A stretch of 64,000 nt of DNA. It comes from a phage. Both the position numbers and the translations under genes were made by a program. The first letter of the stretch is position 1; each line of letters begins with the position of its first letter. The notes beneath the pieces are model-generated. The model worked only from the letters and a program-made list of their open reading frames with translations. It made no database searches and was not told the DNA's origin. The stretch lies in the sequence record PZ347775.1; one strand, given 5' to 3'. Shown here piece by piece: positions 1-44,130 of this stretch.

Positions 1-845
1 AATTAGTAAATGCGAATTTCTTGTACAAATCTAAATAATCAAGAATAGATACGCCATCAATAGAATAAATTTCTTTGCTACCGTACATATTTTGAATTAG
101 TTTAGATTTTACTCGACCGATTGGAGAGAAGCGTTTCATACTGCGTTCGCCCAGAACCATTTTAACACGATTCATGATATACGGAACGTCAAATCCCTCA
201 ATATTCCAACCAGTAAAAATAGCAGGTCGTTTCTGTTCCCAGAGATTAATATATTCCATGAGCATATCACGCTCATTATCAAATGGCATATAAATTACTC
301 GGTCAAGAATTTCTTGAGGAACTTCATCACCACCTTCACAGTCAAGTTTAGCAGCTAACTTTGCATCCCATTTTGATACTGAACCGTACATTGAATTCAA
401 CAAATCAAAGACGTAAAAACGGTCGTCAATTGAATCATAATGAGTGATAGCATCAATTTCATATTCTGCTTTCATTGGGTCAGGAAATTTATCGCCAGTA
501 ACCTCAATGTCACAGTTAGCTACACGAACAAATTTTCGGTCATAAACAATTTCTGAACCATATGTATCACTGATATAAGCGAGTTTAAAATCGTTCATAC
601 CGAGAGCTTCGAGACCGATGTCTTCCATTCGTTTCATCCAATCTCGGGCATCTTTCATTGATGGAAATTTTTGAGGAGCACAGTTTTTACCATAAATGTC
701 TTTGTATTTTGACTCTTCCTTACAATGCCTAAACATAGTCGGAAGATATTCTACTTCGCGAGTACGTTCCTTTCCGTTTTCATCAATATAACGTTCAACA
801 ATGCTATTTCCGACTGTTTCAATAGAGATATAAAATTCTTTCATA
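1..845 (-). CDS. 43: DNA polymerase gp43, N-terminal ~281 codons (gene continues past window start)
   Basis: Hand translation of minus strand from ATG at 843-845 gives MKEFYISIETVGNSIVERYIDENGKERTREVEYLPTMF..., matching the T4 family-B polymerase N-terminus as I recall it; absent from ORF track because truncated at the edge. Confidence 0.9.
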
Positions 846-922: not shown

Positions 923-1144
923 TTAAATTAATACCATTTGTCGGTGAAAAATTGTCAATCCATCTGCATTAATTGACTTAACCACTGCGGTAAAGTGTTT
1001 TTGTTCTGGGTGAACTAATTTTTGAAATTCTACCTGAAATTTTAGTTGGAGATTTTCTGGTAAATCAAAAAGTGTTTCTGTTGCAGAAAGATTATATTTT
1101 TCTTTAAGAGACGCCATGTATTCTTGCGGGGTTATAGCAGTCAT
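923..1144 (-). CDS. hypothetical small protein between regA and 43 (ORF track 923..1186; likely start at internal ATG 1142-1144)
   Basis: ATG sits directly after regA stop (TAATATG); no recognisable motif. Confidence 0.3.
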   Translation of the reverse strand: MTAITPQEYMASLKEKYNLSATETLFDLPENLQLKFQVEFQKLVHPEQKHFTAVVKSINADGLTIFHRQMVLI

Positions 1145-39966: not shown

Positions 39967-40039
39967 TATTTCTCCGTTTCTGTATTTGTTTTGATAAGTC
40001 TATAATAACACCATCCTTGGTGTTTGTACATCATTATTT

Positions 40040-40372
40040 TTAATTTTTCCAACTTAACAACTTGTAGTGTCCTTCATTCATACGTGGTTTATCCCAAGAA
40101 ATACTAATATATGATTCACTGTCAATAGAAGTCGCCGGGTTTTTCTCTACCGTAAGACCTTCACTTTCCAGCCATTCAATAGTATTTGCGCATAAATCTG
40201 AAGAACACCTCATCGGAAACCGGCAAGATTTTTCACCTTTAGCTGCAGTGTTATACATCTTTTCTAAAATACGCTTTTGCACGTTTTTAAAAATAGTTTC
40301 AGCAGATTCTTCAGATTTTTTATTCAGTTCAATATAAAGACTCATAACATTCTTCTCATTAATAGGGCTCAT
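40040..40372 (-). CDS. hypothetical protein
   Basis: 110 aa ORF. Confidence 0.45.
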   Translation of the reverse strand: MSPINEKNVMSLYIELNKKSEESAETIFKNVQKRILEKMYNTAAKGEKSCRFPMRCSSDLCANTIEWLESEGLTVEKNPATSIDSESYISISWDKPRMNEGHYKLLSWKN

Positions 40373-40400
40373 AATATCTCAATCATGAGCCTGTGTAAAC

Positions 40401-40727
40401 TTATTTCATATTATTGAAATATTCTTCTGCGATTTCGTCGTTATCATGGTAAACTTTAGAAGACAGTTTAACATAACCTTCAGCAGTGAACATGTTAATC
40501 ACAACCTTTACAGTATACCACTGACCATCTTCATTACCCATTACTGCATAGGTTTCAAACATCGGATGGTCAGGACCGATAACTTTAATATCATTCACTG
40601 TACGACCGAAATCTTCTGAAACGCATTTCATAAAGAAGTTGAACAGTTCGCCGTAATTATCCATTTTATTCTCCAAGTTGTTTTCTGTATCAGTAGTTGA
40701 TAGTTGTATAGTACCACGGAAAAACAT
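40401..40727 (-). CDS. hypothetical protein
   Basis: 108 aa ORF. Confidence 0.45.
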   Translation of the reverse strand: MFFRGTIQLSTTDTENNLENKMDNYGELFNFFMKCVSEDFGRTVNDIKVIGPDHPMFETYAVMGNEDGQWYTVKVVINMFTAEGYVKLSSKVYHDNDEIAEEYFNNMK

Positions 40728-40874
40728 GGATGTAAACAGTTTTGTGAAAAAATTTTAAAAAGTTTTAGGGAATTCTAGGGAAGGGATGGGCAATTAAAGG
40801 ATAGGATAATATATTATAAAGGGTATAAACTAAATGATGCCTAGAGAGGCGCGGAAAGGCCTAGATACCAAAAA

Positions 40875-40896
40875 GCCCCAACCTTTTGGTCGGGGT
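40875..40896 (-). terminator. hairpin plus U-run terminator (repeat copy A)
   Basis: CCCCGACC-AAAA-GGUUGGGG then CUUUU on minus-strand RNA, 3' of the IP-like gene. Confidence 0.5.
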
Positions 40897-40904
40897 TAAG
40901 AATG

Positions 40905-41378
40905 TTATTTGATTTGTTTAGCAGACCAAATGCGGTCTTTAATAATTTTTTGGATGTCTTCAACATACTCAAGAGAGTGAACATGTGGATTATCTTTGAA
41001 ACTATAGGCACGGGCTAACTTTTGGCCTTCGGTTTTGATTACTAAAAGCTCTTTAAGGATAGCTTCATACTTAGCGATAATTCCTTTAACAATATTTTTT
41101 TCTTGTGTAGCTTTAGGATCTGCTTTAGGAGCAGGTTTACCCGAAGCCTTTGCAAAAGCAGCACCAGTAGCAACTAAACTTTTCCAGGCCATACTAACCG
41201 CATTTCCCGTAAATCCTTCGGCTTTCATATCACGAGCAAATTGGAATCGTGATTCATCGGAAGCATCTTTATAGGAATATTTACCCGCGGCAATGGCAGC
41301 TTTTGCAACAGCTTGAATTTCAGTGCTAGATGCTTCATTTAACACCGCTTCATTTAAAAATTGAGCATATGATTTCAT
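40905..41378 (-). CDS. internal-protein-like capsid-targeted protein (CTS-like MKSYAQFLNEA)
   Basis: 157 aa, Ala/Lys-rich, CTS-like N-terminus; flanked by two near-identical hairpins. Confidence 0.55.
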   Translation of the reverse strand: MKSYAQFLNEAVLNEASSTEIQAVAKAAIAAGKYSYKDASDESRFQFARDMKAEGFTGNAVSMAWKSLVATGAAFAKASGKPAPKADPKATQEKNIVKGIIAKYEAILKELLVIKTEGQKLARAYSFKDNPHVHSLEYVEDIQKIIKDRIWSAKQIK

Positions 41379-41429
41379 CTTATTTCCTGTTTTAATTCGT
41401 GGTTTTAATATACTTATTTATACTAAAAA

Positions 41430-41451
41430 GCCCCAACCTTTCGGTCGGGGC
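41430..41451 (-). terminator. hairpin plus U-run terminator (repeat copy B)
   Basis: Near-identical to copy A (two transitions). Confidence 0.5.
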
Positions 41452-41459
41452 TAAGCCTT

Positions 41460-41760
41460 GCGGCAACCTTGTCGGGGTTCCACCTGCTAAGGCAAGTGTT
41501 TGTACGAAACGCCGGGATTCGAACCCGGTTATTAAGCAGTTGACGCTACTTAATATTTTTAAAAGGCCATATCTCGACCATATCCGAACGTTCCGTCAAA
41601 AACGCTACTCGGCTTACGGCAAAGATATTTCCTCGAATCGATAATTCTGTGCGCCGTTTCTGCTGTGATGTAAGGGGATATTAATAAATCATAAAGATTT
41701 ATTAAGACCAGTCCTTACACAGGGAACATCAGTCCGACGACTTACCGGTAGCGACCCGGT
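41460..41760 (-). ncRNA. candidate stable RNA region with tRNA-like T-arm (possible counterpart of T4 species 1/2 RNAs); boundaries uncertain
   Basis: No ORF of 60 aa or more; contains ccgggttcgaatcccgg (perfect T-stem-loop consensus on minus strand) and further hairpins; T4 has small stable RNAs in its tRNA region. Confidence 0.3.
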
Positions 41761-41763
41761 TTC

Positions 41764-42114
41764 TTAATATTCTTTTAAAGCATCAATCTGTTCACGACGT
41801 TTACGCCATAAATCAATTGCTTCATACGCAGATTCAGCATTTCGAATTGGACGGCATTTATATAAAGACTCGTGATTTTGATATTGCGTAGATAACGTAA
41901 TTTTATCTAAAAGGTCTTTACGTTCAAAGTATTCGTAACCATCTAAGCCAAATGAACGATTTTTGAGAAATTGCCAATGACCATATTCGTTTTCGACATA
42001 AACATAATCCGCGTGTTGATAAAGCAAATTAATTACACGTTCAGAAATAACAGTGTCATTGTGATTAAAATAAAATGTTAAATCATGAACTACTAAATAA
42101 ACATTACCTTTCAT
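41764..42114 (-). CDS. hypothetical protein
   Basis: 116 aa ORF immediately downstream of the tRNA cluster. Confidence 0.45.
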   Translation of the reverse strand: MKGNVYLVVHDLTFYFNHNDTVISERVINLLYQHADYVYVENEYGHWQFLKNRSFGLDGYEYFERKDLLDKITLSTQYQNHESLYKCRPIRNAESAYEAIDLWRKRREQIDALKEY

Positions 42115-42130
42115 ATTTTCCTCACTTAAT

Positions 42131-42206
42131 TGGTCGAGGCAGTAGGGATCGAACCTACGACCTAGGACTTAGAAGGTCCTTGCTCTTCCTTCTGAGCTAT
42201 GCCCCG
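42131..42206 (-). tRNA. tRNA-Arg (anticodon UCU)
   Basis: Hand-folded cloverleaf on minus strand: acceptor CGGGGCA/TGCCTCG, anticodon loop CTTCTAA, T-loop GGTTCGATCC, encoded CCA. Confidence 0.8.
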
Positions 42207-42210
42207 TAAT

Positions 42211-42286
42211 TGGGGTGACCGATGGGAGTCGAACCCATGACTACGAGAATCACAATCTCGAGTTCTACCAACTGAACTACGGCCAC
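42211..42286 (-). tRNA. tRNA-His (anticodon GUG), no encoded G-1
   Basis: Acceptor GTGGCCG/CGGTCAC, anticodon loop TTGTGAT, discriminator C, CCA; resembles E. coli tRNA-His. Confidence 0.7.
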
Positions 42287-42400
42287 ATTAATACCTACTC
42301 CAACAATCAAGATGTCTTCACACGAAATTAAGAGAAGAGTGATCAGTTCAACCCCGATAATCGCGTCAAGTAGATATTAATGTGACAGTTGTCACAAATT

Positions 42401-42475
42401 TGGCGGACGTGATAGGATTCGAACCTATAACCAATCGCTTAACAGGCGATCGCTCTGCCATTGAGCTACACATCC
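42401..42475 (-). tRNA. tRNA-Asn (anticodon GUU)
   Basis: Acceptor GGATGTG/CACGTCC, anticodon loop CTGTTAA, T-loop GGTTCGAATCC, CCA. Confidence 0.75.
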
Positions 42476-42479
42476 AAAT

Positions 42480-42566
42480 TGGTGGGGAGTGATGGAGTCG
42501 AACCACCCGAGTCGCAATGACAATGGATTTACAGTCCACACCGCTACCTCTACGGGATAACTCCCC
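42480..42566 (-). tRNA. tRNA-Tyr (anticodon GUA), class II with long variable arm
   Basis: Acceptor GGGGAGT/ACTCCCC, anticodon loop CTGTAAA, long variable arm TGTCATTGCGACTCG, CCA. Confidence 0.75.
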
Positions 42567-42579
42567 TTAATTCTTAATT

Positions 42580-42654
42580 TGGTGGCCCTGGGTGGAATTG
42601 AACCACCATCTGGCGATTATGAGTCGCTTGCTTGAACCTTCCAGCTACAGGGCC
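42580..42654 (-). tRNA. tRNA with anticodon CAU (Met, or Ile if C34 is modified as reported for T4 tRNA-Ile)
   Basis: Acceptor GGCCCTG/CAGGGCC, anticodon loop CTCATAA, T-loop GGTTCAATTCC, CCA. Confidence 0.7.
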
Positions 42655-42655
42655 T

Positions 42656-42732
42656 TGGTGCTGATTGACGGAATCGAACCGCCGACCTTCTCATTACAAG
42701 TGAGTTGCTCTACCTACTGAGCTAAATCAGCA
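42656..42732 (-). tRNA. tRNA-Thr (anticodon UGU)
   Basis: Acceptor TGCTGAT/ATCAGCA, anticodon loop CTTGTAA, T-loop GGTTCGATTCC, CCA. Confidence 0.8.
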
Positions 42733-42736
42733 AAAC

Positions 42737-42826
42737 TGGCGGAGGCGATAGGATTTGAACCTATGAGTCGCCGGAGCGACTGCCGGTTTTCAAGACCGGT
42801 GCATTAAACCACTCTGCCACGCCTCC
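42737..42826 (-). tRNA. tRNA-Ser (anticodon UGA), class II
   Basis: Acceptor GGAGGCG/CGCCTCC, anticodon stem CCGGT/ACCGG with loop CTTGAAA, long variable arm, CCA. Confidence 0.8.
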
Positions 42827-42828
42827 AG

Positions 42829-42902
42829 TCTCCATACAAGGATTTGAACCTTGGACCTCCTGATCCCAAATCAGGCGCTCTACCAAACTGAGCTACACGG
42901 AG
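42829..42902 (-). tRNA. tRNA-Pro (anticodon UGG), CCA not encoded
   Basis: Acceptor CTCCGTG/TATGGAG, anticodon loop TTTGGGA, T-loop GGTTCAAATCC; 3' end is A-CU not CCA. Confidence 0.75.
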
Positions 42903-42912
42903 TAAATTAAAT

Positions 42913-42986
<74 letters not shown>

Positions 42987-42991
42987 AAATT

Positions 42992-43078
42992 TGGTGCGAG
43001 AAGTGGGACTCGAACCCACAAGGAAATCATTCCGCAGCATTTTAAGTGCTGTGCCTTTACCAATTTGACCATTCTCGC
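42992..43078 (-). tRNA. tRNA-Leu (anticodon UAA), class II
   Basis: Acceptor GCGAGAA/TTCTCGC, anticodon stem CAGCA/TGCTG with loop CTTAAAA, long variable arm, CCA. Confidence 0.8.
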
Positions 43079-43079
43079 G

Positions 43080-43152
43080 CTGGGAATAAAGGACTCGAAC
43101 CTTTGCATCCTGGAATCAAAATCCAGTGCCTTACCAACTTGGCTAATTCCCA
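43080..43152 (-). tRNA. tRNA-Gln (anticodon UUG), CCA not encoded
   Basis: Acceptor TGGGAAT/ATTCCCA, anticodon loop TTTTGAT, T-loop GGTTCGAGTCC; first gene of the cluster. Confidence 0.8.
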
Positions 43153-43153
43153 A

Positions 43154-43190
43154 TTATTAACAAAGGCTCTCAAGCAAGAACCCTTGATGA
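43154..43190 (-). promoter_or_regulatory. putative middle promoter for the tRNA cluster
   Basis: Minus-strand cTTGCTTGA then ~11 nt then TAATAAT ending a few nt upstream of tRNA-Gln. Confidence 0.35.
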
Positions 43191-43249
43191 TAGAGGGTAT
43201 TAATCAGTGCGATATGAGTTAATAATAACAAATAATTCTTAAAGCATAT

Positions 43250-43537
43250 TTACCATTTATGATAATACATATTTATGATGCATTCAAGACCCAAAGGATT
43301 CTTGAAAATATCATATTCAAGAGGACCTTTTTCTGTTTCAATAAAGAAATCAAAGTTAACTGTATTAAATTTACGATCTTCCTTTACTAATTTAACCTGC
43401 GAAGATGAACGATCAATGTAAACCTTTTCAACTTCAAAACATGTTAAAATGCCATAATCATTAATCAAGGCTTTAGCTGCTTCTTGATCATATTTATATC
43501 CATTTTCAACAGACGATACTTTTGCATAAAGAATCAT
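43250..43537 (-). CDS. hypothetical protein
   Basis: 95 aa ORF upstream of tRNA cluster. Confidence 0.45.
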   Translation of the reverse strand: MILYAKVSSVENGYKYDQEAAKALINDYGILTCFEVEKVYIDRSSSQVKLVKEDRKFNTVNFDFFIETEKGPLEYDIFKNPLGLECIINMYYHKW

Positions 43538-43539
43538 TA

Positions 43540-43944
43540 TTAACCTTTATCAACAATAGTGTGAGTATGGACATTTACAATTTGCCACCAATCGAAACTA
43601 TCGCCAAATCGTTTTGATTTATTGTCTTCAATAATTTGACGTAATTCATCTTCTGTTTCAGCATACGCAATCAAATCATCATATCCACCGCAAGGATAAT
43701 AATTATCGCCTGCAAACAAAAGAAAATTTACTTTAGATGGGTCTACATAATAATGCTCTTTAGGATATTTAGTTCCTTTCCAATCAGTTACTTCAACATA
43801 ACGGTAAGAAAATCCATTTTTACTTTCAACCCAACTCCACGCTTCAAAAGGAGTATTAAAAACTCTATCAGGTATTAAATTACCTTCAAAATGAGAAGGA
43901 TTTGCATAATCCCCAGCATAAACATAATATTCGTTAATATTCAT
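43540..43944 (-). CDS. hypothetical protein
   Basis: 134 aa ORF. Confidence 0.5.
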   Translation of the reverse strand: MNINEYYVYAGDYANPSHFEGNLIPDRVFNTPFEAWSWVESKNGFSYRYVEVTDWKGTKYPKEHYYVDPSKVNFLLFAGDNYYPCGGYDDLIAYAETEDELRQIIEDNKSKRFGDSFDWWQIVNVHTHTIVDKG

Positions 43945-44130
43945 TTATTCACCTTTAGAAATTTTATCCATAACGATAGCAATTAAACCAATTAAAAATG
44001 CTACTACAAGTGAAAATACATTTTCTGCTGTAGTTAATAATCCGCATATAAATCCAACAAACATTGAAAAACTAAAAGCGGAAGCAGAAATTGCAATAGC
44101 AACATTTCGAATTAATTCACAACGTTTCAT
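43945..44130 (-). CDS. small membrane protein
   Basis: 61 aa, largely hydrophobic. Confidence 0.45.
   Translation of the reverse strand: MKRCELIRNVAIAISASAFSFSMFVGFICGLLTTAENVFSLVVAFLIGLIAIVMDKISKGE

Follow-up and report, generated by a model that had tools for sequence, protein, structure and literature searches.

What is encoded in an apparently non-coding interval that lies downstream of a phage tRNA cluster and carries part of a tRNA-like shape? The stretch of DNA analyzed here (the window, 64,000 nucleotides of sequence record PZ347775.1) contains such an interval at 41460-41760, for which the initial annotation proposed either small stable RNAs akin to species 1 and 2 of T4 or a degenerate tRNA remnant. 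The rnaC and rnaD RNAs of T4 were described and sequenced in the 1970s and are annotated in T4 GenBank records; one of the two is tRNA-like. We conclude, with a probability of about 0.9, that the interval consists of the phage's own rnaD and rnaC, which are orthologous to the species 2 and species 1 RNAs of T4, respectively. Both RNAs are already known, and the locus is categorically nothing new. Its features actually span 41768 to 41425, so that the interval as first drawn was slightly tight; they are listed in Table 1.

Table 1. Coordinates of the rnaD-rnaC locus and its surroundings in the window
Feature	Position	Strand	Evidence
11 tRNA genes (upstream context)	42131..43152	-	ARAGORN, Rfam
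116-aa ORF, phrog_3355	41764..42114	-	ORF call, PHROG match
rnaD orthologue (T4 species 2)	41647..41768	-	alignment to RB59/T4T rnaD, covariance model R2, covariation
A/U-rich spacer AAUUA between rnaD and rnaC	41642..41646	-	sequence
rnaC orthologue (T4 species 1), tRNA-like	41503..41641	-	T4T identity, covariance model R1, covariation
T-arm of rnaC, CCGGG/UUCGAAU/CCCGG	41512..41528	-	motif scan, stem covariation
3' trailer with three small hairpins	41453..41502	-	z = -3.7 jointly with terminator
Intrinsic terminator	41424..41452	-	sequence; terminator annotated in GiZh and fPS-65

The source of the window is a Tequatrovirus, a T4-like phage. The 421 bp of 41380-41800 show a 100% match to Escherichia phage ECO07P3, and by nucleotide comparison of the same segment the region is carried by 807 phage records. 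The interval aligns end to end with rnaD and rnaC as annotated in T4T, RB59 and GiZh; in the annotations of relatives, rnaD is called 'species 2 RNA' and rnaC 'small, stable RNA; species 1 RNA'. The proposal of RNAs analogous to those of T4 was therefore right but too cautious, since these are the same genes. Over its whole length, rnaC is identical to T4T rnaC at 136 of 139 positions (97.8%), and rnaD is identical to its T4T counterpart at 104 of 120 positions, with both conserved core strands unchanged. We also built covariance models of rnaC (R1) and rnaD (R2) and ran them over the 64-kb window. The sole strong match of R1 is rnaC, with 167.5 bits and an E value of about 1e-39, and the sole match of R2 is rnaD, with 137.8 bits. 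Both RNAs are encoded on the minus strand, 3' of the tRNA cluster, and precede a shared terminator; rnaC is located on the strand of the tRNA cluster, 3' of rnaD and 5' of the terminator on the e.8 side. The further hairpins noted in the initial annotation are borne out by MFE z-scores, relative to shuffled sequences, of -4.1 (41503-41641), -4.3 (41647-41766) and -3.7 (41425-41502). The Rfam scan named there as a check (E<=10, 40000-44000) yields no family that covers rnaC or rnaD; the only matches in the interval, isrK (E 3.3), anti-hemB (E 8.8) and Rev39_5p_UTR (E 4.6), are at chance level.

A direct comparison with T4 gives the same picture for both RNAs. T4 rnaC, also known as 'band C', is orthologous to that of the window, with the same strand, the same place between rnaD and the terminator and the same predicted fold. 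The two differ by three substitutions. Two of these are in the 10-bp hairpin and keep its pairing (G.U to A-U and U-A to U.G), and the third, in the long arm, changes a U in T4 to a C in the window (GGUUGAG to GGUCGAG). The rnaD RNAs ('band D' in T4) are likewise orthologous, with an identical 5' hairpin and the common order tRNA-Arg, rnaD, rnaC; however, about a dozen positions of the distal hairpin differ, and the encoded ACCA of T4 is replaced by ACAG. The T4 arrangement of rnaD, which begins only 1 nt after tRNA-Arg and has an encoded ACCA end, is thus not found in the window. Since other Tequatrovirus relatives share both the ORF insertion between tRNA-Arg and rnaD and the ACAG end, we regard these states as variation within the family and not as grounds for exclusion.

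The perfect T-arm noted in the initial annotation, CCGGGTTCGAATCCCGG on the minus strand, was found and forms the 3' domain of rnaC. Allowing at most one mismatch, GGTTCGAATCC has nine matches in the window, every one of them on the minus strand; eight are T-arms of tRNAs called by ARAGORN, and the ninth is located at 41515-41525. Shuffling gives an expectation of 0.54 sites, and none of 100 shuffles reaches nine. By RNAalifold and pair counting, the predicted fold of rnaC is a covariation-supported four-way junction. Its 7-bp acceptor stem pairs CGAUUCG (41640..41634) with CGUUUCG (41511..41505). A long arm (41633..41564) takes the place where a D-arm would be and exists in two unrelated sequence types among the homologues. 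An A/U-rich linker separates the long arm from a 10-bp hairpin (41555..41530) with the loop CGUCAA (41545..41540). The discriminator U at 41504 is followed by ACA in the T4-type RNAs, including that of the window; Klebsiella phages (HMGUkp2-type and Jiaodavirus) encode CCA there instead.

The fold was evaluated in two alignments, A3 and A7, of 21 and 17 distinct rnaC sequences, respectively. The sequences are from Tequatro-, Karam-, Teguna- and Jiaodavirus, from Citrobacter phage Ursula and Klebsiella phage HMGUkp2 (other straboviruses) and from IMG/VR contigs; the divergent Jiaodavirus rnaC was found afterwards by the covariance model, beyond the first 21 homologues. In A3, 98.4% of cells are paired and 22 of 35 pairs show compensatory change, and the corresponding values in A7 are 93.0% and 25 of 37. 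In neither alignment does any of 500 shuffles attain these values, and slid controls yield no more than seven (A3) or nine (A7) pairs. The acceptor stem covaries through the variants CGAUUCG/CGUUUCG, CGGUUCG/CGUUCCG, CGGUCCG/CGGACUG and CGGUAUG/CAUACCG. Its two central positions, 4 and 5, form tandem U.U in 15 of the 17 distinct sequences and are Watson-Crick in Tegunavirus (CGGUCCG/CGGACUG) and Jiaodavirus (CGGUAUG/CAUACCG). The T-stem also covaries (CCGGG/CCCGG, CCUGG/CCAGG, CUUGG/CCAAG and CUCGG/CCGGG). In the 10-bp hairpin, compensatory change is seen at 9-10 of the 10 pairs while the loop pattern C-N-N-C-A-A is kept; CGUCAA of the window is replaced elsewhere by CAUCAA, CGCCAA or CUGCAA.

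Compared with a canonical tRNA, rnaC has the same 7-bp acceptor stem, the same 5-bp T-stem closed by a UUCGAAU loop and a discriminator base; some genera also encode the CCA, and within tRNA arrays rnaC is spaced as a tRNA would be. However, it is about 140 nt long, carries a long extra arm and a 10-bp hairpin, and has neither a D-arm nor a 7-nt anticodon loop, so that the acceptor stem and T-arm are the only tRNA parts. ARAGORN makes no tRNA call here, and Rfam RF00005 gives no match at E<=10 over 41460-41770. Because neither scores rnaC, we limit the term tRNA-like to its acceptor/T domain. The tRNA-like domain of tmRNA, the bacterial Y-RNA-like YrlA and the viral 3' tRNA-like structures are also RNAs other than tRNAs in which an acceptor/T module serves as a substrate or ligand of tRNA enzymes, and their likeness to rnaC is one of concept. 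Regarding tmRNA, ARAGORN and Rfam find none on the interval, position 3:70 of rnaC is A-U or G-C, and rnaC is without the tag ORF of tmRNA. Regarding YrlA (RF02553), weak matches (E 0.019-4) fall on true tRNAs and none on 41460-41770. YrlA also differs from rnaC in that the ends of rnaC sit at the acceptor stem.

The second RNA, rnaD, starts with an A-rich leader and a 5' hairpin (41760..41744; ACCGG/CCGGU stem, GUCGCUA loop), followed by AA and a long irregular hairpin. The basal stem of the latter pairs 41741..41735 with 41656..41651, and its middle helix is UGUU/AGCA. In the alignment of 23 rnaD sequences (A4), 98.3% of cells are paired, compensatory change affects 11 of the 21 pairs, and the covariation score is reached by none of 500 shuffles. 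For example, the 5' hairpin stem is ACCGG/CCGGU in the T4 type, UCGGG/CCCGA in phage W70 and AUCAGAA/UUCUGAU in Karamvirus. A terminator-like site on the plus strand (41744-41760), picked up by the consensus scan, is this same hairpin read from the opposite strand. The middle helix was assigned as UGUU/AGCA because the exchange of U40/A111 for A40/U111 (UA in 13 and AU in 9 sequences) fits this register only; the register CUG/CAG plus UGU/ACA of the single-sequence MFE structure was accordingly rejected, and a local anticodon-like hairpin (GGA-CUGAUGU-UCC) was dropped on the same covariation evidence. The closing basal pair is G27-C121 with a bulged U28, which is favored by the A-U pair in Jiaodavirus; the 3' tail that follows is therefore A-C-C-A in T4. 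The tail is ACAG in the window (41650..41647) and ACCG, ACCC or ACCU in many relatives.

Two further structural candidates were set aside. The internal loop GACUGA/GAAA of rnaD fits neither the K-turn nor the loop-E consensus cleanly, and it is not conserved in Karamvirus and Jiaodavirus. Intermolecular pairing of rnaD with rnaC (GAAACG/CGUUUC) was dropped because it shows no covariation and each RNA occurs independently of the other. The distal hairpin of rnaD (about 41662-41718 on the minus strand) is the variable part of the molecule, with at least four unrelated versions exchanged among homologues (loci L005, L007, L010, L004 and L037). Three distal versions contain a pyrimidine-rich motif, AGUUCCUC or GAGUUCYCUCAACGAUAAC, which is absent from the version of T4 and the window.

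The surroundings of the two RNAs are also conserved in part. The 5-nt spacer AAUUA between rnaD and rnaC is identical to the one that separates tRNA-Trp from rnaC in Karamvirus, and it fits RAUUW, which we take to be the preference of RNase E. Downstream of rnaC, the 3' trailer forms the hairpins CACUUGC/GCAGGUG, AACC/GGUU and GCC-GCAA-GGC; it is conserved and stands directly 3' of rnaD in Dhakavirus, which is without rnaC. The terminator noted in the initial annotation is present at 41452..41429 on the minus strand as a 10-bp stem with a GAAA loop, AGCCCCGACC-GAAA-GGUUGGGGCU, and a U-run, and ends the tRNA/rnaD/rnaC transcription unit. A near-identical terminator, with which it shares the form CCCCGACC-GAAA/AAAA-GGUUGGGG, is located at 40895..40876 on the same strand, and the two enclose the next gene (40905..41378, phrog_2280). 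After the upstream terminator comes TATAAATA (41422..41415). Yersinia phage fPS-65 (L056 302-347, 861-906) has an extra ORF between two annotated terminators, the upstream one of which overlaps a predicted late promoter; this arrangement suggests that gene cassettes are shuffled via repeated regulatory modules.

On the 5' side, eleven tRNA genes are found on the same strand (Gln, Leu, Gly, Pro, Ser, Thr, Met/Ile-CAU, Tyr, Asn, His and Arg), and the 116-aa ORF is situated between tRNA-Arg and rnaD, with its TAA stop (41766..41764) inside the rnaD leader. Consequently, rnaD and rnaC also form the 3' UTR of this ORF, and 3' processing of tRNA-Arg cannot create the rnaD 5' end, unlike in T4. With the ORF intervening and the encoded CCA replaced by CAG, the ends of rnaD in the window may be made differently from those in T4. 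The same family, phrog_3355, adjoins a tRNA-Met in Karamvirus (L004 143-517), and in GenBank record PP526941 the 421-bp match overlaps an 'endonuclease' feature, which may be the 116-aa ORF or another gene. Within the otherwise tightly packed tRNA array, a tRNA-free spacer of 114 nt (42287-42400, minus strand) separates tRNA-Asn from tRNA-His and contains a hairpin (UGUGACA/UGUCACA) and a TTGACG hexamer. As tRNA-His is absent from T4 and GiZh, this spacer may be the scar or the promoter of an inserted tRNA cassette. The tRNA at 42580-42654 (minus strand) is called tRNA-Met (CAU) by ARAGORN; it is probably a lysidine-dependent tRNA-Ile2 and not a Met tRNA, since the syntenic gene is annotated as tRNA-Ile in T4T and as tRNA-Ile (CAU) in GiZh.

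The distribution of the two RNAs shows that they are independent modules, and each is found alone in some phages. Of the two, only rnaD is present in Dhakavirus dhabil and phage pEC-M719. In Karamvirus, rnaC exactly fills the gap between tRNA-Trp and tRNA-Gly, after the AAUUA spacer, and is not adjacent to rnaD; a rnaD-like element has a place of its own between tRNA-Asn and tRNA-Asp. The Jiaodavirus rnaC lies 5 nt past the last tRNA, and there too a rnaD-like element is found between tRNA-Asn and tRNA-Asp. Overall, rnaC is kept across at least four genera.

Outside this group, rnaD is present in the Vequintavirinae phages W70 and A73. In Escherichia phage W70 (L006 1447-1547, minus strand), it directly follows two tRNA-like genes, which we read by eye since the record annotates no tRNAs there; the core strands are identical to those of T4, the 5' hairpin has covaried and the distal hairpin is different. 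A73 matches with 100% identity over 128 nt, the locus context being known from W70. Only six records cover at least 80% of the W70 query, and the Vequintavirinae seen are W70 and A73 only; judged from these sequences, the presence of rnaD in them therefore looks like a case of horizontal transfer between families of phages with a common host. In some T4-like contigs, tRNA-Arg and rnaD are separated by a miniature rnaD-like element (L013 about 1040-1110, minus strand; L014 about 320-390 and L023 about 240-310, plus strand). Its layout, a 5' hairpin GACUAU/AUAGUC, then AA, then GCCGUCG...CCGGCGCAAC, makes it appear to be a tandem paralogue of rnaD. In bacteria, exact-pattern scans of 185,579 species genomes give no match to the rnaD core and 17 matches to a composite rnaC pattern, all attributable to chance (GC-rich coding DNA or ordinary tRNAs); such scans detect exact matches only, so that distant homologues could be missed. 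In addition, blastn against 5,426 complete E. coli genomes detects no homologue.

Several other explanations of the locus have to be weighed against these data. The perfect T-arm and 7-bp acceptor-like stem beside a tRNA cluster, in a sequence that neither ARAGORN nor the Rfam tRNA model calls, could be those of a decayed tRNA gene, a pseudogene with no function of its own, as the initial annotation had allowed. We reject this reading as very improbable because the arms that are foreign to tRNA covary. The non-tRNA parts of rnaC are in fact its most constrained ones (the 10-bp hairpin with its compensatory pairs, and the C-N-N-C-A-A loop), and the long arm covaries too. Moreover, rnaC is nearly identical to that of T4 while the flanking DNA varies, it is retained in several genera, where it takes a regular tRNA slot, and in T4 both RNAC and RNAD were detected by Northern blot as discrete late RNAs, which shows that a stable RNA accumulates (PMC9697503). 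An idea that deserves scarcely any credence is that the conserved feature is a protein gene on the plus strand. The claim that the interval holds no ORF of at least 60 aa is correct for the minus strand only; on the plus strand, an 81-aa ORF with a GTG start (41399..41644) overlaps it. This ORF exists mechanically, and many GenBank records show a 'hypothetical protein' under the match, either this ORF or a flanking gene. Yet it has no Pfam or PHROG family match, and in T4T and GiZh its frame stays open for no more than 47 codons, which argues that it is not a gene; in addition, its start lies within the terminator stem and the substitutions are compensatory in the RNA helices. It also seems improbable that rnaC is an aminoacylated, adaptor-like RNA that joins or disturbs translation in the way of tmRNA or a plant-virus tRNA-like structure. 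The acceptor stem with its discriminator and CCA or ACA, the canonical T-loop UUCGAAU and the occupation of a tRNA slot would all suit such a role, whereas the missing anticodon loop and D-arm, the tandem U.U mismatches in the acceptor stem, the lack of G3.U70 and the negative tmRNA searches with ARAGORN and Rfam speak against it, and rnaC is not known to be charged.

A more serious contender, though still an unlikely one, is that rnaD and rnaC are a purely cis-acting 3' trailer or UTR, whose hairpins only guide the processing of the upstream tRNA and ORF transcript or shield it from 3' exonucleases, the released fragments having no function in trans. The two RNAs are the last structures ahead of the terminator, they form the 3' UTR of the 116-aa ORF in the window, and wherever they occur, it is inside a tRNA array or at its end. 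T4 that lacks its entire tRNA region still grows on laboratory strains, and this dispensability would agree with a cis-acting role. However, stability would suffice for protection, yet 20-nt sequence blocks are common to Tevenvirinae and a Vequintavirinae phage; the conserved hairpin loop of rnaC is not needed for protection, and rnaC also occurs inside tRNA arrays, where 3' protection is unneeded. Further evidence comes from the T4-like phage BW1, in which evolution on E. coli ECOR34 gave a single rnaD SNP in all three independent lines, and virulence (RBG) on this host rose from 0.17 to 0.98 (PMC12685909). A point mutation in rnaD thus altered host-specific virulence. The sequence blocks shared by phage families with the same hosts, the conserved rnaC hairpin loop and the convergent BW1 mutation (PMC12685909) lead us to prefer a trans-acting role over mere protection of 3' ends.

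The roles of rnaC and rnaD have been called unknown in a review (PMC3014915). On a trans-acting role, the two RNAs would act on a host component that recognizes tRNA-like shapes. We favor, as a speculation to which we give clearly less than even odds, that rnaC and rnaD are tRNA-mimic decoys or modulators of host tRNA-directed enzymes or defense nucleases. A narrower version, in which the target is a strain-specific host factor such as a tRNA-directed defense nuclease or a tRNA-processing/repair enzyme, and the recognition surfaces are the conserved C-N-N-C-A-A loop of rnaC and the conserved internal loops of rnaD, is offered as a doubtful but specific possibility.

Regarding biogenesis, both RNAs end in a helix followed by an N-CCA-like tail and have a tRNA-like placement in the arrays. 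According to classical T4 work of the 1970s-80s, the maturation of species 1 involves RNase P, RNase III and RNase E. In the mechanism that we propose, rnaD and rnaC would be cut from a long transcript of the tRNA cluster by host tRNA-maturation enzymes. RNase P may act at the base of the rnaC acceptor stem, where the acceptor and T-arm would present a minihelix, and the A/U-rich leader (AAGAAA) and spacer (AAUUA) may be sites for an endonuclease such as RNase E. The ACA and ACAG ends could then be repaired by exonucleolytic 3' trimming and the CCA-adding enzyme, after which the processed RNAs would persist as stable species. These enzyme assignments draw on the anatomy of the two RNAs and on the older T4 literature.

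If the decoy reading is true, it accounts for the way in which rnaC and rnaD travel with phage tRNA arrays, for their dispensability on laboratory strains and the occurrence of each RNA without the other, and for the repeated unlocking of a semi-permissive E. coli host by a point mutation in rnaD (PMC12685909). In many deposited T4-like genomes rnaC and rnaD lack an annotation, and in some a 'hypothetical protein' feature is found under the match. The function of these RNAs is a question about 50 years old that is now easier to test. Covariation-backed structures of both RNAs and a short list of conserved unpaired nucleotides are at hand, and natural 'knock-out' lineages exist, with rnaD without rnaC in Dhakavirus and rnaC away from rnaD in Karamvirus. 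Finally, ECOR34 is a published host in which the effect of an rnaD mutation is large.
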